A stretch of DNA of 50,207 nt from Candidatus Undinarchaeota archaeon (GTDB taxonomy: Archaea; SpSt-1190): assembly GCA_964449215.1 (NCBI GenBank), contig CAYVAH010000002.1, positions 1 to 50,207 on the forward strand, in the 5' to 3' direction. The translations under genes and the position numbers were made by a program. Under the pieces are notes generated by a model. It was given only the letters and a program-made list of their open reading frames with translations. It did no database searches and was not told the origin of the DNA. Shown here one piece after another: positions 10,430 through 46,718 of the stretch (position 1 is its first letter; the number at the start of each line of letters is the position of its first letter).

Positions 10430-10612
10430 TTAGAAGTTGTCTTCAGAGAATTTTTCGTCGAACTCTTCTTCCAGTTCATCGAGGTCATCCTTGAACAAAG
10501 ACTTCCTGGTCTTCTTCTCCATGTCAGCCTCCTCCATCCCCTCGAGAAACCCCTGCTCCTCCCAAACCTCTTCCTCATCATACTGGTCTTCCAGCTCTTC
10601 TTCGCTGAACAC
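10430..10612 (-). CDS. small highly acidic protein
   Basis: 60 aa, 27 Asp/Glu; GTG start; TTAAAA-like element upstream. Confidence 0.65.
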   Translation of the reverse strand: MFSEEELEDQYDEEEVWEEQGFLEGMEEADMEKKTRKSLFKDDLDELEEEFDEKFSEDNF

Positions 10613-10700
10613 GTAGAAGAAGAGGGTGTCCGACTTTTAAGATTTGTGTTTAACTTTCTGGTTGTGCAAAGACCTAATGAAAAAACGACAGAAGTCGAAA

Positions 10701-11036
10701 TCAGCGCAGCCCGGTGCATCTCCAGTTTATTTCCGCCTCTCCGGTATTCACATCCACCACGCAAGCAGGACTGCAACCCGGCCGGTCAAGGTCCAGTTCA
10801 ATCCACCACGTTCCGGTGTAGGCATTGCACATCCTGAAATCTGTGAGGTTTCCCTCTGCACACTCACTTGCCAGAGCAATTGACCTCGCCATTTCCCAGC
10901 TCATATTGGCCCCGGTCCTGCTATCCACACAGGTATCTGCCAGTCCGCTCTGAAAGTCGGTGAAGCGCACGAGAATCCCAACAAACAGGAACAGCACAAT
11001 TAGCAACAACCCCCCAAGAACATACACCTTACTCAT
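10701..11036 (-). CDS. membrane-anchored Cys-rich extracellular protein
   Basis: N-terminal TM helix; six Cys; CNAYTGTWWIELDLDRPGCSPACVVDVNTGEAEINWRCTG. Confidence 0.75.
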   Translation of the reverse strand: MSKVYVLGGLLLIVLFLFVGILVRFTDFQSGLADTCVDSRTGANMSWEMARSIALASECAEGNLTDFRMCNAYTGTWWIELDLDRPGCSPACVVDVNTGEAEINWRCTGLR

Positions 11037-11072
11037 TCAAAACTCAGCCACCACCAATAAAAACGTTTCCGG

Positions 11073-11999
11073 TCAGGGGTCAACACCCCTTTTGCTGATC
11101 GGGGCAACCCGTGTGTTGTCCCACAGCTCCTCCAGCTCGGAGGAATACCTCCTGGGGGCAATCATATGGACGGTGGGCCCAGCATCAAGAGTATATATCA
11201 CAGGGACCCCGGAGCCCCGGAGATCAATCACCCTGGAAATAAGCTCCCCTGTTTCTCTGGTGAGGTAACTGAAAGGAGGGTCACTCGTTGCGGCTATCGC
11301 ATGTATGAGCATGGCATCGGTCTCCACAGGTCCTTCAAGAGCTGACATGTCCCGTTCCTGCACGGCCCGCTTTACCTCCCCAATCATACGGTCAACCAGC
11401 CCCATCCTGACCGTGTGCAGGGGACTTGAGTGAACGAGACGGTGAGCAGTTGCGGAACCGACGGCTTTTGGCCTGCTTGAAACGATGGCAACAACATCAA
11501 CGAGCCGCCAGTGCGAGGCGGGAAGGAAGGACTCGGCATACGACTCCTCATGGGAGTTGCCGGCATGCCATTCAACAAAGCCACCGAAAACCGAGCGGGA
11601 AGCGGAGCCGGAACCGAGGCGGGCAAGCCTGCTCAGCCCCGTGGAATCAAGACCCAGGGAAAACTGCTGGTCCAGCTCGGCGGCGAGCGAAGAAAAAACA
11701 GCCGCAGAAGCCGCTATCCCTACGGAGCGCGGGAAGTTCAGCTCAAACCTGACTTCAAAAGGTTTGATGCGATAGAACATTGAAGCTGTGCGGTAGAACT
11801 CCTCGAACCTCTCCAGAGCAGCACCCCTGAGTGGGGCATCATTGAACACCACACGAACCCTGTCATCAGGCCGGGCCTCGCACACCGAAGTGAGACCATC
11901 AAGCGTAAACGAAAAACTGGAATTCGTAGGAAGGTTCAACCCGGGGTCACGGGTTCCCCAATACTTTATCAGGGCTATGTTTGACCTGCCAACTGCCAT
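11073..11999 (-). CDS. mvaD: (di)phosphomevalonate decarboxylase, GHMP superfamily
   Basis: NIALIKYWG, LPTNSSFSFTL, GIAASAA, GSGSASRSVFGGFVEW, YTLDAGP. Confidence 0.9.
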   Translation of the reverse strand: MAVGRSNIALIKYWGTRDPGLNLPTNSSFSFTLDGLTSVCEARPDDRVRVVFNDAPLRGAALERFEEFYRTASMFYRIKPFEVRFELNFPRSVGIAASAAVFSSLAAELDQQFSLGLDSTGLSRLARLGSGSASRSVFGGFVEWHAGNSHEESYAESFLPASHWRLVDVVAIVSSRPKAVGSATAHRLVHSSPLHTVRMGLVDRMIGEVKRAVQERDMSALEGPVETDAMLIHAIAATSDPPFSYLTRETGELISRVIDLRGSGVPVIYTLDAGPTVHMIAPRRYSSELEELWDNTRVAPISKRGVDP

Positions 12000-13883: not shown

Positions 13884-13942
13884 CCGTTCTCGCCCTTACC
13901 CGCTCCGCTCGTGCGGGTCACCTCGAAGCCGTTGACGATAAT

Positions 13943-13992
13943 GGGTGCCGGAGGCACCCCTGTTTTTTGCCAGCTTTTTTACAAAAAAGCTG
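13943..13992. terminator. hairpin + T-tract followed by a second inverted repeat (possible bidirectional terminator)
   Basis: GGGTGCC-GGA-GGCACCC (13943-13959) then TGTTTTTT; CAGCTTTTTT-AC-AAAAAAGCTG (13971-13992); lies between the convergent hydrolase and tRNA-Glu. Confidence 0.6.
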
Positions 13993-14065
13993 CCCCAAGC
14001 GGGATTTGAACCCGCGTCTCGGGATTGAGAGTCCCGAATCCTTGGCCGGACTAGACGATTGGGGC
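13991..14065 (-). tRNA. tRNA-Glu(CTC)
   Basis: GCCCCAA...TTGGGGC-A acceptor stem, CGGGA-CTCTCAA-TCCCG anticodon arm, GGTTCAAATC T arm; no encoded CCA. Confidence 0.95.
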
Positions 14066-22911: not shown

Positions 22912-23017
22912 GGGCCCGTAGCTCAGCCGGTCAGAGCGCCGGTCTTATATGGCCGCCTCTGGCATAGGGACGACCTAAGAAAGCCGGAGGTCCGGGGTTC
23001 GAGTCCCCGCGGGCCCA
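22912..23017 (+). tRNA. tRNA-Ile(TAT) with 32-nt intron at 37/38 (22950-22981)
   Basis: GGGCCCG/CGGGCCC-A acceptor stem, GCTC/GAGC D stem, CCGGT-CT-TAT-A|intron|A-GCCGG, GGTTCGAGTC T arm; BHB with CTTA/TAAG central helix. Confidence 0.92.
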
Positions 23018-25324: not shown

Positions 25325-26314
25325 GTGGACATCACTGTGTTGATACCAGCATACAAGAAACTCGACAGGATACCCAAGGCCTTGGACAAGCTCAGGTTCA
25401 GGGGGGACTTCGAGGTTATTGTTGCCGGGGACTGTTTAAGCCCCAGAGACAGGAAGTTCCTGAAGGAAAGGGGAGTCGTGCTTGACCACTCCGAGAAAAG
25501 GCGTGGCAAGGCCAATGCGCTGAACCAAGCCTCTGAGAAGGCAAAGGGAGAACTCCTTGTGTTCATCGACTCTGACACCTGCCCGGAGGACAGTGAGTTC
25601 CTGGAAAAAATCTGGAGGAACTACAAGGAAAGGAACTTCGAAATCGGAACGGGTAAAGTCATGGTTAATGGTGACAGCCTGCTCGAGAGGTCCATAAATG
25701 TAGAATACATGTTCATAAACAGTGCAGTATTTCTCGGAAACCTTTTCAGGAAGGCCATGCCACTGATTGGGGCATTCATAGTGGTCACGAAGGACGCCTT
25801 TAACAGGATAGGGAAGTTCGCCAAGGTCATTCTTGAAGACATCGACCTAGGATGCAGGGCAAATACCTCCGGGCTGCGATTTTTCTACATGAAGGACGTG
25901 ACTGTTTATACATCCTCACCGAAAAGATTCAGGGACTGGATGGTCCAGAGGAAAAGGTGGGTGATAGGAGGGTCACAGTCAATCTGGGCCGCGAAAAAAG
26001 AAGCAATAAAGAATTTCCCACTTTCGCTCGCAGCCATCACATCGTGCTATCCCCTCCTCTCAATCTCGTTGATGTTACTCGTCGCCGCAACCTTTGCTAT
26101 GTCCCAGGTGAGCATTGTATACATCCTTTCAGTAACCGCACTCCTGACAACCAGTCTAATGCTCGTGATGAACAGGGTCCTGAACTGGGGGATTTCGCTG
26201 TCCTCAGGAATCCACTATCTTCTGTGGTACGGCCCCATTTGGTCGACCCTTCTCGTAATAGAACTCCTGTATTTCTCCTTCAAGAAAGACAAACCTGCGG
26301 ACTGGGTAGTCTAG
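25325..26314 (+). CDS. GT2 glycosyltransferase, processive type (QxxRW) with C-terminal TM helices
   Basis: VLIPAYK, GKANALN, FIDSD, LEDID, QRKRW, three C-terminal TM segments. Confidence 0.88.
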   Translation: MDITVLIPAYKKLDRIPKALDKLRFRGDFEVIVAGDCLSPRDRKFLKERGVVLDHSEKRRGKANALNQASEKAKGELLVFIDSDTCPEDSEFLEKIWRNYKERNFEIGTGKVMVNGDSLLERSINVEYMFINSAVFLGNLFRKAMPLIGAFIVVTKDAFNRIGKFAKVILEDIDLGCRANTSGLRFFYMKDVTVYTSSPKRFRDWMVQRKRWVIGGSQSIWAAKKEAIKNFPLSLAAITSCYPLLSISLMLLVAATFAMSQVSIVYILSVTALLTTSLMLVMNRVLNWGISLSSGIHYLLWYGPIWSTLLVIELLYFSFKKDKPADWVV

Positions 26315-26348
26315 GCGAAGAGCTAAAAACCAGAACCGCCAGAACTTT

Positions 26349-26367
26349 TTGCCGGGGTGGCGGAGCC
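26349..26367 (+). repeat. direct repeat of the tRNA-Ser 5' end (att-like copy)
   Basis: TTGCCGGGGTGGCGGAGCC at 26349-26367 is identical to 26619-26637 (offset 270 bp). Confidence 0.85.
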
Positions 26368-26618
26368 CGGACGAGGGGCTGCGCCCCTACGTTTACCTGC
26401 AGGGTGTCTCCCTCCGGTCGAGCACCCAAAAGATGCCGGGCATCGGTTGGCATCAACGAAACCGAGCGCAAAGCAGTCCATCAACGCTTTCGCAGCGAGC
26501 CGAGCTGTTCCATCAACGAATTTGCGAGGCCGTTCGAACGGAGTTCGAGAGGCCCCACGAGCCGCTGCTCGTGTGGGAGGCGAGCCAAAGGCGAAGCCGA
26601 CGAAGCAAATTGGTTGAG
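26368..26618. mobile_element. small GC-rich palindromic insert between duplicated tRNA 5' ends (putative non-autonomous element or remnant)
   Basis: AGGGGC-TGC-GCCCCT hairpin, three CATCAAC motifs (26451, 26479, 26511) in stem-loop contexts, CCCACGAGC-CGCT-GCTCGTGTGGG hairpin; no credible ORF. Confidence 0.5.
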
Positions 26619-26620
26619 TT

Positions 26621-26702
26621 GCCGGGGTGGCGGAGCCTGGTAACGCGCTGGACTCGAAATCCAGTCCCTCTGGGATCAGGGGTTCAAATCCCCTCCCCGG
26701 CG
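26621..26702 (+). tRNA. tRNA-Ser(CGA)
   Basis: GCCGGGG/CCCCGGC-G acceptor stem, CTGGA-CTCGAAA-TCCAG anticodon arm, long variable arm, GGTTCAAATC. Confidence 0.95.
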
Positions 26703-26757
26703 CTGATAGCTCCATAACCGACCACAAAAAAAGAAAGAAGAAATAGGACCGTGAGCA

Positions 26758-26856
26758 TCATTTCTTCTTTTTCCTGGTTGTCTTCTTCTTTGTCGTCTTT
26801 TTCTTGGTTGCCTTCTTCTTGGTTGCCTTCTTTGTCGCCTTCTTCTTAGCGGGCAT
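26758..26856 (-). CDS. 32-aa Lys-rich histone H1-tail-like microprotein
   Basis: MPAKKKATKKATKKKATKKKTTKKKTTRKKKK; GGTGA SD 5 nt before the ATG; AT-rich promoter region upstream. Confidence 0.75.
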   Translation of the reverse strand: MPAKKKATKKATKKKATKKKTTKKKTTRKKKK

Positions 26857-26958
26857 CTCAATCACCGGGATTCTCCCCGGTAACAATATGCCGGGGAAAT
26901 ATTTATCCTTTCTTTATCTTTCCGGAAAAAATAACTATCAGCAGGTATGGGGATAGGC

Positions 26959-27600
26959 ATGGTGGTTTATGTAATCAACTTCAAAGCATACGGCGAGACG
27001 GTCGGGGAGCGGGGGCTTGGGATAGCAAAGATCCTCGACAGGTTCGCCTCCGAGACCGGGGCGAAGATTATGGTGGCAGTTCAGCCCACGGATATCCGCA
27101 TGATTGCAAAAGAGGTGTCGATACCCGTTCTTGCCGAACACTTCGACCCTGTGGAACCTGGAGCCAAGACGGGGTGGGTGACACTTAAAGCCGTGAGAGC
27201 GGCTGGAGCGAGTGGAAGCCTGATAAACCACAGCGAACACCGCATACCCAAAGAGAAAATAGCCAAGGCTGTGGAGATGGCAAAGGGAGCCGGGAAGCTC
27301 GTGATAGTCTGCGCCAGAGACGCAAAGGAGGCGAGGGAGCTTTCGGAACTCAAACCGGACTACATAGCAGTGGAACCCCCAGAGCTGATAGGTGGAAACA
27401 TAAGCGTGAGCAGGGCACGGCCGGAGCTGATATCCGAAAGCGTCCGGCTTTCCAGAGTCCCCGTGCTTGTGGGTGCTGGAGTAAAAACCAGCGAAGATGT
27501 GAGAAAAGCCGTCGAGCTCGGGGCCAAGGGCGTGCTGGTTGCAAGCGGCGTGGTCAAGTCAGGGGACGTGAGGAAGGCAATTGAAGGGCTGATCATTTAA
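26959..27600 (+). CDS. tpiA: triosephosphate isomerase (archaeal type)
   Basis: INFKAY, VLAEHFDP, LINHSEHR, AVEPPELIG, LVGAGV, GVLVASGVVK; alternative ATG at 26947. Confidence 0.96.
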   Translation: MVVYVINFKAYGETVGERGLGIAKILDRFASETGAKIMVAVQPTDIRMIAKEVSIPVLAEHFDPVEPGAKTGWVTLKAVRAAGASGSLINHSEHRIPKEKIAKAVEMAKGAGKLVIVCARDAKEARELSELKPDYIAVEPPELIGGNISVSRARPELISESVRLSRVPVLVGAGVKTSEDVRKAVELGAKGVLVASGVVKSGDVRKAIEGLII

Positions 27601-40410: not shown

Positions 40411-40484
40411 CCAATAGTTCCGCGGAAGGTTTTATAACTTTAATTGGGAATCAGGCATATATAGGAAAGCCGAGTAAATGAGTT

Positions 40485-41777
40485 GTGAAAATCGAGGGCA
40501 GGGCAGTGGTGCCCGAGCTTTCCCCCAGAGGGCTTTCGAAGCTCCTTCTCGACCTTGACAACCGGGAAAGGAACAGCATTCTCAAGGGTCTTGACCCGGA
40601 GACCCTGACAAAAACTCTCAGAGAACTGCCCGGCGCGGTGCGGAGGGACTTCTTCAGGAAAGCCCCCTTGAAAAAACTTGTGGAATTAATCGGGCACGCA
40701 AAAGACGATGTGGCCATAGACTTTCTCCAGGAAATACGGGCGGGAAGGTCACTGAAAATCCTCCGCCAGTTGCCCGCAAAGAAAAGGCGGGTCCTGGAAG
40801 AGCTGCTGAGATACCCACACGACACAGCAGGAGGACTCATGACAAAGGAGTTTATGGCCTTCCGGAAAGGAACACGCATCTCAGAGCTCCTGAAGGAACT
40901 GAAGGGCAAAAGGCTCCCGGACTCCCTGTACGTGGTGGACGAGTCGGGGAGGTTCTTCGGGGAGATAAAGACCAAGGAACTGCTTTTTGCCGACCCAAAG
41001 AAAACAGCAGGGGAACTCGCAAACAGGGACATAATGGAAATAAGTCCTGAGACGGACAGGGAGGAAGTGATCAAGATATTTACAGAGACCGATGAAACCA
41101 TCCTGCCGGTCGTGGACAGCACCCAGCAGCTCGCTGGAGCAATCACCGTGGACGACGTGATCGACGCACTGCAAAAAGAAGTCAGCGAGGACCTGTCCCT
41201 GATCTCCGGTAGCACGGGAAATGTCGAGGATGCCCTGTACTCCTCAACATGGAACTCGGTGAAGGCCCGCATACCCTGGTTGATGTTCACGGTCTTCGGG
41301 GAGATTATTTTCACTGGAAACATCATCCACATGTTCGACGGCGTCCTCGCCAGGTACATATCCCTGTCCTTTTTCCTCCCAGTGCTGATGTGCCTCTCAG
41401 GGGACTCGTCAATCCAGAGTTCCATAGTGGCAATCAAAGGACTGTCTGAGGACAGGATAAAGAATGTTCGAAACTTCCTGTTCAGGGACCTGAAGGTCGG
41501 TCTTGTCCTTGGCATGCTGTTGGGACTGCTGGCAGCGGCAGTTTCTCTGATCTGGTTGCATTCACTGAAAATAGGGATTATTGTGGGGGTTTCAGTCACA
41601 GCATCCCTGGTCATGGCAAACTTCATAGGGACCATGCTGCCGGTGATGTTCGACAGGATGGGAATGGACCCGGCAGTCTCGACGGGCCCTCTGCTAACAA
41701 CCACAATGGACGTGATTTCAATGGGCGTTTACTTCATAACAGCCACACTCCTCCTCGAAACCTTTGTAGCAGTGTAA
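40485..41777 (+). CDS. mgtE: magnesium transporter MgtE
   Basis: YPHDTAGGLMT, CBS pair, GAITVDD, RIPWL, MGMDPAVSTGPLLTTTMD. Confidence 0.95.
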   Translation: MKIEGRAVVPELSPRGLSKLLLDLDNRERNSILKGLDPETLTKTLRELPGAVRRDFFRKAPLKKLVELIGHAKDDVAIDFLQEIRAGRSLKILRQLPAKKRRVLEELLRYPHDTAGGLMTKEFMAFRKGTRISELLKELKGKRLPDSLYVVDESGRFFGEIKTKELLFADPKKTAGELANRDIMEISPETDREEVIKIFTETDETILPVVDSTQQLAGAITVDDVIDALQKEVSEDLSLISGSTGNVEDALYSSTWNSVKARIPWLMFTVFGEIIFTGNIIHMFDGVLARYISLSFFLPVLMCLSGDSSIQSSIVAIKGLSEDRIKNVRNFLFRDLKVGLVLGMLLGLLAAAVSLIWLHSLKIGIIVGVSVTASLVMANFIGTMLPVMFDRMGMDPAVSTGPLLTTTMDVISMGVYFITATLLLETFVAV

Positions 41778-44726: not shown

Positions 44727-44944
44727 AATTCCCGGAATATGACGCCTTTGAAAAAATGATTATGGCTGTGATAGGCATCGTTACACTGCTGGGGTTCTAC
44801 TACGCCAGGACCATATATCGGATGGCACAGGAGATGGTCTATGAGCCCAACGTGATTCTCGGCGTGCTTCTGTTCATCATCCTTGAAGTCATGCTGCTCA
44901 ACGCCGTGCTCCTGTACTCAATGCTGAAGGGTCGGTCAAAATGA
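44723..44944 (+). CDS. small 2-TM membrane protein between nop5 and fibrillarin
   Basis: 73 aa, 4-nt overlaps with both neighbours. Confidence 0.65.
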   Translation: MKFPEYDAFEKMIMAVIGIVTLLGFYYARTIYRMAQEMVYEPNVILGVLLFIILEVMLLNAVLLYSMLKGRSK

Positions 44945-45573
44945 TCATAAGAATTGGCAGGGAACTTGCAACCGAGAACCTCGTCCCGGGACAGAGCGTT
45001 TATGGTGAACGGCTGATCCGCCGGAAGGGCAAAGAGTTCCGGCTCTGGAACCCGAAGCGCAGCAAGATAGCGGCGGCAATTCTCAAGGGCATGAAAGTCC
45101 CCTTCAAGGAGGACTGGAAGGTGCTCTACCTTGGTGTTGCCAGCGGGACCACCGCCTCGCACCTGAGTGACATCATCCGCAAAGGAATGATATTCGGCGT
45201 TGACCCAGCACCCCGCGTGCTGCGGGAGTTCCTCCTCCTGTCCGAGACCCGGCCCAACCTGGTGCCCTTGCTCAAGGATGCCAACCGACCGGAGTCCTAC
45301 CGGGACGTGGTGCCGGAGGTGGACTTTCTCTACCAGGACGTCGCCCAGCCAAACCAGGCACAGATACTCGTCAAGAACGCCAACATGTACCTCAAGCGGG
45401 GCGGGCTGGCATTCGTCGCCGTCAAGTCCCGCAGTATAGATGTAACAGCGAACCCGAAAAAGGTCTTCAACAGGTTCAAGCGCGAGCTTCACGGGCTGGA
45501 AATACTCGACGAGAAGCGACTGGAGCCATTCGAGAAGGACCATCTGGCGTTGCTGTTGAGAAAGACCAAGTGA
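44941..45573 (+). CDS. flpA: fibrillarin (box C/D 2'-O-methyltransferase)
   Basis: WNPKRSKIAA, VLYLGVASGTTASHLSD, DANRP, DVAQPNQA, LEPFEKDH. Confidence 0.97.
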   Translation: MIIRIGRELATENLVPGQSVYGERLIRRKGKEFRLWNPKRSKIAAAILKGMKVPFKEDWKVLYLGVASGTTASHLSDIIRKGMIFGVDPAPRVLREFLLLSETRPNLVPLLKDANRPESYRDVVPEVDFLYQDVAQPNQAQILVKNANMYLKRGGLAFVAVKSRSIDVTANPKKVFNRFKRELHGLEILDEKRLEPFEKDHLALLLRKTK

Positions 45574-45606
45574 ACAACTATTATATTTTCTGCACTCTAA
45601 CATACT

Positions 45607-46086
45607 GTGCTCCCTGAAAAAAACTACCGCGCCCTGAAAACCATAATTGAGAGAGTCAAAGACCACAAAATAAACTGGGCCGTTGTTGGCAGCACCAACC
45701 TGTGTATACAGGGTGTGAACGTAACCCCAAACGACATTGACATCCTGACGGATAAAGAGGGAGCACTCCTTCTGAACGAATTGCTTGAAGACTTTGCAGT
45801 CACGCCCGTTAGTTGGTCGGAAACCAAACGTTTCAAAAGCTGGTTCGGTGTCTTCAACATTCATGGTTGTAAAGTTGAGGTTATGGGAGACCTGCACAGC
45901 AGAGTGCCTGAAGGTGACCTCTGGAGTGAGACTGCTGGCTTTTCCGCCAGAGTTACAGTCAGTTACAGGGGACTTAAAGTACCCGCCATTTCCCTGAGAA
46001 GAGAATATGAGACATACCTGAAATTGGGGAGAACTAAAAAAGCGGAAATGATAGCCAGGCATCTGGGCGCACAAGAGCAGGATTAA
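45607..46086 (+). CDS. Pol-beta-type nucleotidyltransferase domain protein
   Basis: WAVVGSTNLCIQG...PNDIDIL, KVEVMGD. Confidence 0.8.
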   Translation: MLPEKNYRALKTIIERVKDHKINWAVVGSTNLCIQGVNVTPNDIDILTDKEGALLLNELLEDFAVTPVSWSETKRFKSWFGVFNIHGCKVEVMGDLHSRVPEGDLWSETAGFSARVTVSYRGLKVPAISLRREYETYLKLGRTKKAEMIARHLGAQEQD

Positions 46087-46718
46087 CCACACGACTGCAA
46101 CCCCACCAGCGATTCCAGAGACTCAACGGCACTTGAAAGGTCCTTTCTATCAACTATGAGAATAGTATCCGTCCAGCAGCTGAGGAACTCTATTATGTTC
46201 ACCCCTGCATCACACAATGTCATGCAAATCTGTGCAACAACACCAGGGGTGCTCTCTATCAGAGGGGGGCTGCGAATTACCAGCTCGACTACTTCCTCAT
46301 AGCTCTTGAAGGCATATTTTTTCAATTCATGGCCGAAAGACGCGGGCAGCACTGCAACCCAGACCCCTGGCTCCTGTAAAATGTGGAACTCTTCATTACG
46401 GAGATGTGCCTTCTTCAAAAAATCCAGCACCTTATCAAAACCTTCACGGCCTATGAACACAGAAATTCCCGTCCTTATCTCGATTCGCGAGTTCTCCAGA
46501 ACCTCCTTGGCCTGACGAGGTTCCTTGAACTCCATACGCCTCAGCGCCATGTGGACTGCATGGAACTTGTCAGTGCCCAGATCCTTGGCAATTTTCCGTG
46601 CCAGGGCTGAAAGGTTAACCACACCCCCGGCAAGCGCATGTCTCAAGTAAACACTCTTACGGACGTATTCCCCAACTCTTCTGGCTATGCTCTCCACCAT
46701 GTCAATTATTAGACACAT
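46083..46718 (-). CDS. putative regulator: N-terminal helical domain + C-terminal ACT domain
   Basis: VNLSALARKI...VHMALRR; STPGVVAQICMTLCDAGVNIIEFLSCWTDTILIV; alternative ATG at 46700; divergent from argG. Confidence 0.75.
   Translation of the reverse strand: MCLIIDMVESIARRVGEYVRKSVYLRHALAGGVVNLSALARKIAKDLGTDKFHAVHMALRRMEFKEPRQAKEVLENSRIEIRTGISVFIGREGFDKVLDFLKKAHLRNEEFHILQEPGVWVAVLPASFGHELKKYAFKSYEEVVELVIRSPPLIESTPGVVAQICMTLCDAGVNIIEFLSCWTDTILIVDRKDLSSAVESLESLVGLQSCG

Follow-up and report, generated by a model that had tools for sequence, protein, structure and literature searches.

The tRNA-Ser(CGA) gene on the archaeal contig CAYVAH010000002.1 (assembly GCA_964449215.1, Candidatus Undinarchaeota archaeon SpSt-1190) carries a 248-bp, gene-less insert composed of hairpin modules, which separates a short displaced copy of the gene's 5' end from an intact tRNA gene downstream. 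All coordinates, unless a contig is named, refer to positions 1 to 50,207 of the forward strand, the 50,207-base stretch that we analysed and call the window. The corresponding site is empty in relatives, and short gene-less hairpin inserts bracketed by copies of a tRNA's own end recur at other tRNA genes of the same clade. From these comparisons we consider it somewhat probable that the insert is a non-autonomous mini-element, or a scar, of a recombination process that targets tRNA ends and acts in trans.

A sequence-only reading of this DNA had reported a duplicated tRNA-Ser 5' end at 26349 and 26619, and both positions stand. The 19-mer TTGCCGGGGTGGCGGAGCC occurs exactly twice in the window, at these two positions, and gave no matches in 100 dinucleotide shuffles, even at two mismatches. 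When extended, the repeat reaches 22 nt with one C/T mismatch (TTGCCGGGGTGGCGGAGCC[C/T]GG, 26349-26370 versus 26619-26640, both on the plus strand), comprising two leader bases and tRNA-Ser(CGA) nucleotides 1-20, and it stops at G19 in the D-loop. Copy 1 is a 22-bp stub that retains the ancestral D-loop letter (AGCCCGG), as seen in the repeat and in a collinear alignment with relatives that have the empty site. Copy 2 forms the 5' end of the intact gene and reads AGCCTGG, a T replacing the C of copy 1 and of the relatives. The intact tRNA-Ser(CGA) gene occupies 26621-26703 on the plus strand and was recognised by both ARAGORN and the Rfam tRNA model (61.7 bits).

Comparison with relatives established which of the two copies marks the original position of the gene. 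Contigs of relatives, all of them metagenomic, are designated by L numbers, and Logan runs by X1-X13. A TATA-like box, CTAAAAAC, lies at 26323-26330 (plus strand), ~28 nt 5' of tRNA nucleotide 1 of copy 1, which agrees with the CTAAAAA that had been placed at 26323 by the sequence-only reading, and the box ATAAAAAC stands at an equal distance before the uninterrupted tRNA in L093, L098 and a contig from X13. The gene order of GT2 glycosyltransferase, tRNA-Ser and TIM is kept in relatives. In L093, L094, L095 and L098, whose TIM is ~70% identical, the GT2 stop codon is followed by AGAGATAAAAAC, ~25 nt and an uninterrupted tRNA, and window 26300-26370 aligns collinearly with the relatives' promoter and tRNA 5' end. 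The X13 contig has the empty arrangement too, together with the window's own GCCGGGG acceptor variant, and the orthologous site is empty in all relatives at <=73% TIM identity. Since the same synteny occurs in relatives without the insert, copy 1 stands where the tRNA did ancestrally, downstream of its original TATA-like box. What separates the two copies, 248 bp at 26371-26618 (plus strand), is a lineage-specific insertion in the D-loop, and the proposal of a small non-coding element inserted at the 5' side of the tRNA is thereby upheld by the empty sites.

The junction is not restricted to a single genomic neighbourhood. A second upstream flank, TAAAAAACACAAGTCACATTTAATTCTTGC, which resembles the region upstream of tRNA-Ser in L092, joins the identical stub-plus-insert unitig (26350-26469) in X1, X2 and X10, indicating that another genome has this junction behind other upstream sequence; X3-X6 showed the window context alone. 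Neither of two further products anticipated for such an insertion, an empty site within the population and a 270-bp circle, was found: no empty allele appeared in the run contigs, and no joint leading from 26618 back to 26371 appeared in the contigs of 12 runs, contigs being assemblies from which rare variants drop out.

To the same Altiarchaeota clade belong further inserts of this kind. About 16 tRNA loci were read for duplications of tRNA ends, and at least four further loci, plus two decayed ones, hold gene-less hairpin inserts of 30-100 bp bracketed by copies of the tRNA's own end. The inserts measure 95 nt at a tRNA-Ile(UAU) gene (L099 8213-8445, 3' copy identical at 23/23 positions), 98 nt at a tRNA-Glu gene (L101 3030-3227, minus strand, 3' copy 25/25), 32 nt at a tRNA-Ser gene (L089 620-820, 3' copy of 29 nt), 65 nt at another tRNA-Ser gene (L092 860-1135, 5' copy of 16 nt and a decayed 3' copy) and ~88 nt at a tRNA-Gly gene (L087 6120-6313, decayed 3' copy). 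Each duplication begins within a few bases of the gene end and stops in the first loop (the T loop in the 3' cases, the D-loop in the 5' cases), as gene-restoring site-specific recombination predicts (principle in PMC4383910). The inserts in L099, L092 and L087 are homologous though their tRNAs differ (alignment A3), each with its own duplication, and they share a layout of a T-run hairpin, GAYCAAAA and then GGGGTTTAGAAA...AGCCCCTTCT. The window shows the mirror image of the 3' cases, with the stub, 4 nt, a hairpin termed E, intervening sequence, a trailer-type hairpin domain and the tRNA end in succession.

Two further observations concern tRNA genes. At L089 672-760, the tRNA-Ser 3' end and seven trailer bases (29 nt) are repeated after a 32-nt hairpin spacer; the resemblance of these repeat and spacer sizes to a CRISPR unit is probably a coincidence. 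The window also contains an intron-containing tRNA at 22912-23017 (plus strand), missed by ARAGORN and found by Rfam, which has a ~32-nt intron at the canonical position 37/38 and the anticodon UAU (Ile). The UAU anticodon is uncommon in archaea, and L099, L100 and L101 contain this same gene.

The inserted DNA has a GC content of 62%, compared with ~50% in its flanks, and consists of modules that we describe in their plus-strand order. Four nucleotides past the stub lies hairpin E (GGGGCUGCGCCCC, 26375-26387, z = -3.3), which is identical at 15/15 positions to L086 3500-3486 and at 14/15 to L087 6159-6173, and which recurs in L087, L092 and L099 at 4-5 nt from the tRNA fragment that is duplicated there. 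Folding places two small hairpins, GGGUG..CACCC and GAUGC-CGG-GCAUC, at 26402-26444, the second of which, with its 3' flank (26436-26458), matches L087 5989-6011 at 22/23 positions. These are followed by three CATCAACG boxes (26451-26518), located by motif search at 26451, 26479 and 26511, exactly where CATCAAC motifs had been noted before. Box 2 falls in the loop of a hairpin at 26466-26493, and box 3 provides the 5' arm of a helix, P1, that closes the right-hand domain described below. The boxes are indeed a recurring feature, with C[AG]TCAACG conserved in related modules of L086 (three times) and L087 (twice) and present in the trailer of the window's tRNA-Glu gene (13937, minus strand).

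Further copies of the insert were sought in a single metagenome scan with its most widely shared 23-mer, which returned two loci only, L086 and L087. Both carry the window's modules in differing orders, and the mosaic is different at every locus. The modules shared among the window, L086 and L087 are C[AG]TCAACG followed by CTTTGCAAGG, hairpin B (GGCCGTTCGAACGGAGTTCGAGAGGCC, 33/34 identical), the small hairpin C, module D (GGCGAAGCCGAGGAAGCGAAATGGTTGAG) and hairpin E (GGGGCTGCGCCCC). No larger parent with an integrase was found, and blastn-short found no second copy of the insert within the window. Sequencing depth suggests that the modules occupy a few loci per genome. In run X5, the window locus is matched in depth by an L086-like locus, whose C hairpin is identical to that of the window (26554-26577) and differs from L086 3834-3815, which suggests that copies within one genome may have been homogenised by gene conversion or recent copying. 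Contigs with tRNA-Ser(UGA) in X6, X9 and X12 carry TCAACG boxes in their trailers, and one of them has a D module ~580 nt downstream. Relative to the gene upstream, the modules have a constant orientation: they always occupy the strand transcribed from that gene, be it in the window, in L086 or L087, or in the tRNA-Glu trailer. That trailer (13893-13990, minus strand, adjoining the tRNA-Glu gene at 13991-14065) comprises a T-run hairpin GCTTTTTTGTAAAAAAGC, GGCAAAAAACA, a GC hairpin GGGGTGCCTCCGGCACCC and a CGTCAACG box.

Database searches assigned the modules to no known family. Rfam, applied at the gathering threshold to the whole window and at E <= 10 to 26000-27000, returned tRNAs only, and Rfam 15 at E <= 1 found nothing but tRNA in L086, L087, L089 and L092. 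Six-frame translations of the window, L086 and L087 clusters gave no protein homologue. Viral contigs scanned with module, attP-like and tRNA-stub patterns yielded no match, nor did phages and plasmids searched with blastn in distant mode, and among the 40 window open reading frames (ORFs) scanned there was no Pfam match to an integrase, transposase, Cas1, TnpA or TnpB.

The insert had been described as structured and does contain hairpins, yet over its full length the fold surpasses that of shuffles only modestly (z = -2.1 on the plus strand, -1.8 on the minus strand). The clear structure resides in the right-hand 112 nt (26509-26620, plus strand; z = -5.15, 0/200 shuffles), which form four helices: the closing helix P1, in which TCAACGAATTTGC pairs with GCAAATTGGTTGA (26513-26525 with 26605-26617) and which includes a conserved G.G mismatch; P2, the B hairpin (26528-26554); P3, the C hairpin (26556-26573); and P4, GGC-GAA-GCC (26590-26598). 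The L087 homologue has the same architecture (z = -6.6) with a different P3 sequence and CCC-GAA-GGG as P4, and L086 holds a minimal version of P1 and P4 only (z = -4.9). RNAalifold retained P1 in all four copies, with three pairs changed on both sides in a compensatory manner. Covariance modelling, which the sequence-only reading had recommended, produced a model of the domain, R1, that also matches, more weakly, hairpins abutting tRNA 3' ends in L087 (E = 0.005) and L089 (E = 0.02), which makes the domain an elaborated form of the tRNA-trailer hairpins of this clade.

Because the insert separates the promoter from the complete gene, it bears on how the tRNA is expressed. No A/T-rich box precedes the intact tRNA, as had been noted before; positions -40 to -15 read GCGAGCCAAAGGCGAAGCCGACGAAG, and nothing similar to the lineage promoter box (A/T)(T/C)AAAAAC was found upstream. 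Since the ancestral box in front of the truncated copy is the sole promoter-like one, the gene is likely to be expressed with a long leader: tRNA-Ser would probably be transcribed by read-through from 26323, giving a ~270-nt structured 5' leader. The long-leader transcription proposed earlier therefore agrees with the position of the box, the mode of expression itself being a prediction. In the minimum-free-energy fold of the whole precursor, the 3' acceptor strand pairs with copy 1 and not with copy 2; at least on paper, the two 5' acceptor strands may compete. Splicing of the kind seen with archaeal tRNA introns, at a bulge-helix-bulge motif, is not required because the intact tRNA is present downstream.

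In the explanation we favour, a 248-bp gene-less segment of clade-specific hairpin modules would have entered tRNA-Ser(CGA) between G19 and U20, with the recombination duplicating the first 22 bp (-2 to +20). One Campbell-type crossover, joining the end of the gene to a matching stretch of the incoming DNA, would produce the regenerated gene and the displaced fragment together, and the recombinase, of a site-specific or short-homology type, would have been supplied in trans. The ancestral promoter would then drive the 20-nt tRNA stub and the insert, while the complete tRNA, regenerated 270 bp downstream, would be left promoterless; the resulting precursor would carry a ~270-nt structured 5' leader needing removal by RNase P, and the insert may serve no function of its own. 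The same process could have left the short gene-less inserts and duplicated tRNA ends at other tRNA genes of relatives. tRNA-Ser begins with 14 nt that are similar to its own 3' end in reverse complement (GCCGGGGTGGCGGAG vs GCCGGGGAGGGGAT), a likeness that may explain how a process aimed at 3' ends came to strike a 5' end.

Integration into tRNA genes with regeneration of the target is a known kind of event. According to the Islander principle, a displaced gene fragment and a regenerated gene form direct repeats that mark the ends of an island (PMC4383910, PMC9897764). Our case resembles islands integrated by tyrosine integrases, such as PYG1 of Pyrococcus yayanosii, in the split target, the restored gene, the repeats at the ends and the empty sites in relatives. 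It differs in size and content, with 248 bp and no gene here versus ~9-23 kb for tRNA islands in Thermococcaceae. Islands leave a 5' fragment in only 4% of cases, whereas here the fragment is a 5' one with its boundary in the D-loop. Islands carry an integrase between the repeats, whereas none was found here between the repeats or among the 40 window ORFs scanned, and no attP was found. Unlike in known islands, the restored tRNA gene also gains no promoter from the insert.

Other systems offer partial parallels. Casposons and their solo terminal-inverted-repeat remnants insert at tRNA 3' ends with a target duplication of 14 to 35 bp by family, and gene-less remnants are common (PMC4779613). 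The likeness thus includes insertion at a tRNA end, a long duplication, gene-less remnants and assembly breaks, but casposons have terminal inverted repeats and Cas1, whereas the insert lacks such repeats and no Cas1 was found in the window; moreover, casposons occupy 3' ends, in contrast to the 5' end in the window, and the clade's duplications vary from 16 to 29 bp. REP and BIME sequences are GC-rich imperfect palindromes that form variable mosaics in intergenic regions and 3' untranslated regions and show compensatory change (PMC2817692, PMC3184786), and they resemble our GC-rich palindromic modules in being reshuffled, here among the window, L086 and L087, with their hairpins conserved. 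These bacterial repeats exist in >100 copies and are associated with RAYT, whereas the present modules are archaeal, apparently occupy a few loci per genome, have no RAYT known or found and, unlike REP and BIME, are tied to tRNA ends and long target duplications. Cis-mobilizable and other non-autonomous integrative elements (CIME-like) are flanked by att sites, lack a recombinase of their own, use an enzyme in trans, are kilobase-sized and derive from identifiable integrative and conjugative elements. The likeness to our inserts is the dependence on an enzyme in trans, although these measure 30-250 bp and have no known parent.

Several points weigh against a recombination process acting in trans. 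No recombinase was found, the 40 window ORFs having no integrase, transposase or Cas1 Pfam match, and no autonomous parent, attP or circle junction was detected in viral contigs, phages, plasmids or the examined runs. Circles of 100-270 bp would be unusual substrates for recombination. For tRNA integrases, the known crossover sites are the anticodon loop, the T loop and the T/acceptor junction (PMC4383910), whereas the boundary here is in the D-loop, and a 5' fragment was left by 159 of 3919 islands only, with a 3' fragment left by 3760 (PMC4383910). The structure and covariation of the right-hand domain could mean selection at the RNA level, and co-transcription is read from the sequence. The relatives are represented by metagenomic contigs throughout, with other loci assigned to the same genome by depth only. 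Finally, the modules double as ordinary gene and tRNA trailers in the clade, a circumstance that local rearrangement fits equally well.

Local rearrangement is the strongest of the alternatives, although we judge it unlikely. It supposes that a break in the D-loop was repaired by copying another locus of the same genome, for example the long hairpin-rich trailer of a second tRNA-Ser gene, with re-annealing through the shared 20-nt 5' sequence. The insert does consist of the host clade's own trailer and intergenic modules, the tRNA-Ser(UGA) contigs with TCAACG-box trailers and, in one case, a D module ~580 nt downstream provide sequences of the appropriate kind, the C module shared with the same-sample L086-like locus, and unlike that of L086, suggests gene conversion, and no recombinase or parent element was found. 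However, the scenario requires a donor cluster whose right end already bears a 5' segment of tRNA-Ser (cluster-TT-GCCGGGGTGGCGGAGCCTGG), and none was seen. It also leaves unexplained why all six or seven duplications in relatives extend from the gene end to the first loop, why homologous inserts with conserved ends stand at three different tRNAs, and why the same junction occurs behind a different upstream flank in another genome.

Somewhat less probable still is retention of the insert as a functional structured RNA, either as a leader small RNA released by RNase P and bearing three CAUCAACG loops or arms for binding, or as an element acting in cis on the processing or stability of the tRNA and of the GT2 mRNA upstream. 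The insert forms a GC-rich island in the 50% GC genome of a thermophile, its right-hand domain folds well (z = -5.15), L087 keeps the architecture with other P3 and P4 sequences and compensatory changes in P1, and the placement of the modules on the strand transcribed from the upstream gene is constant. Against this, the orthologous position is devoid of the insert in all relatives at <=73% TIM identity, the arrangement of modules is a mosaic that differs at each locus, no Rfam family matches, and REP and MITE-like palindromic repeats likewise keep their hairpins with covariation of this type.

A far more speculative variant, to which we assign very little weight, holds that the hairpin inserts are gene-less elements homing to tRNA ends, in which the adjacent copy of the target guides an RNA-guided or structure-guided recombinase or nuclease. 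In the window, the target copy stands next to a conserved hairpin domain (P1-P4, TT, then 20 nt of tRNA-Ser), and in L099, L092 and L087 it follows the E hairpin and TTCT, with 20-25 nt of the tRNA end. Such guidance would explain homologous inserts beside three or four different tRNAs, each duplicating its own target.

The TCAA(C) motifs had led the sequence-only reading to consider IS200/IS605, and a gene-less derivative of that family (PATE or REP-like), moved as single-stranded DNA by a TnpA-type enzyme, would account for the subterminal and internal hairpins, the repeated TCAAC motif and the several copies in the community. IS200/IS605 elements insert without duplicating their target, whereas 22 bp are duplicated here; the CATCAACG boxes, with their TCAACG core, sit in helices and loops, away from the element's ends; the 40 window ORFs scanned include no TnpA or TnpB Pfam match; and Rfam gave no match to IS605-associated RNAs, all of which makes this origin highly improbable. 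A MITE does not fit either, as the ends ACGAGGGGCTG... and ...GCAAATTGGTTGAG are not inverted repeats and the duplication is 22 bp, compared with the 2-10 bp expected.

Several further candidates for the insert were tried and set aside. Rfam returned no match to signal recognition particle (SRP) RNA, RNase P RNA, snoRNA, a ribozyme or IS605/HEARO RNA, and this includes SRP (7S) RNA, whose gene adjoins tRNA-Ser in Methanothermus. There are no boxes of a CRISPR, a C/D small RNA or an H/ACA small RNA, and a replication origin is unlikely as there is neither an AT-rich unwinding element nor ORB-like boxes. The E hairpin is not a decayed T-arm, being 100% identical to the L086 module.

Least credible of all, and virtually dismissed, is an assembly artefact in the form of a chimeric join through the repeat: public assemblies do break within the insert, at 26389, 26436, 26490, 26557 and 26589, and its modules are repeated in the community, but one Logan contig from run X5 covers 26250-26654 unbroken, including both repeat copies, with only two single-nucleotide polymorphisms (SNPs). 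The concern that nothing would span both copies is thereby removed. Contigs from X3 and X4 cover 26100-26502 and 26100-26529, and contigs from X1 and X3 run from 26557 onward through the tRNA into TIM, all of them within <=2 SNPs of the window. Contig L005 holds the GT2 gene, copy 1 and the insert as far as 26490, and L001-L004, from four other samples or assemblies, hold the insert, the tRNA and TIM. Repetition of parts of the insert in the community accounts for these breaks; over 26440-26595, k-mer depth is 5-14x that of the flanks, with unitigs of 49-120 nt and many alternative flanks.

The surroundings are those of an ordinary archaeal chromosome, with genes for FEN1, SMC, ribosomal protein S3, MCM, LonB, AspRS and Nop5 and glycogen genes. 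The nearest named relatives are Candidatus Altiarchaeota metagenome-assembled genomes (MCM 75-78% identical, TIM 60%), the sources being hydrothermal-vent metagenomes, and the top matches of a genome scan with TIM were DPANN genomes, 54% identical and without synteny. Locally, the GT2 glycosyltransferase gene (25325-26314) is followed by tRNA-Ser(CGA), a small lysine-rich minus-strand ORF, TIM (26947-27600), a class V FBPase and a GDE_C protein, an order that relatives share. The lysine-rich ORF (MPAKKKATKKATKKK..., 26758-26856, minus strand, 32-42 aa) is kept between tRNA-Ser and TIM in all relatives, reaches ~80 aa in L097 and belongs to no Pfam family. L099 (GCA_018221025.1) has a gene for a VTC-domain protein between GT2 and tRNA-Ser (10584-11885), which marks the intergenic region upstream of tRNA-Ser as a rearrangement hot spot in the clade, and L088 has an extra Cyt-b5 gene upstream of tRNA-Ser. 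Two ORFs of 417 aa elsewhere in the window (40451-41704 and 44839-46092, both on the minus strand) have no Pfam match at E <= 0.01.

Our search of the literature found nothing on such repeats in Altiarchaeota. According to the literature found, what is new beside the known integration with gene regeneration is the gene-less size, the 5' site in the D-loop, the mosaic of hairpins and, above all, the recurrence with conserved ends in one clade, a recurrence that points to an undescribed mode of tRNA-gene targeting. Viruses, plasmids and islands classically land in tRNA genes, and they are mapped by means of the gene fragment that they displace. At 5' as well as 3' tRNA ends in one uncultured archaeal clade, what this hallmark brackets is a mere 30-250 bp of gene-less hairpin DNA, and the ends of the inserts are conserved yet each target has its own duplication. 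Mini-elements moved in trans, if that is what the inserts are, would constitute non-autonomous archaeal mobile DNA of a new kind and would imply a further recombinase. If the inserts are scars, they would show how fast small genomes strip integrated elements and would serve as a warning that such fragments confuse tRNA annotation and break assemblies. With its tRNA split from the promoter by a predicted 270-nt leader and with two competing 5' acceptor strands, the locus may also offer a natural test of archaeal RNase P and of tRNA folding.

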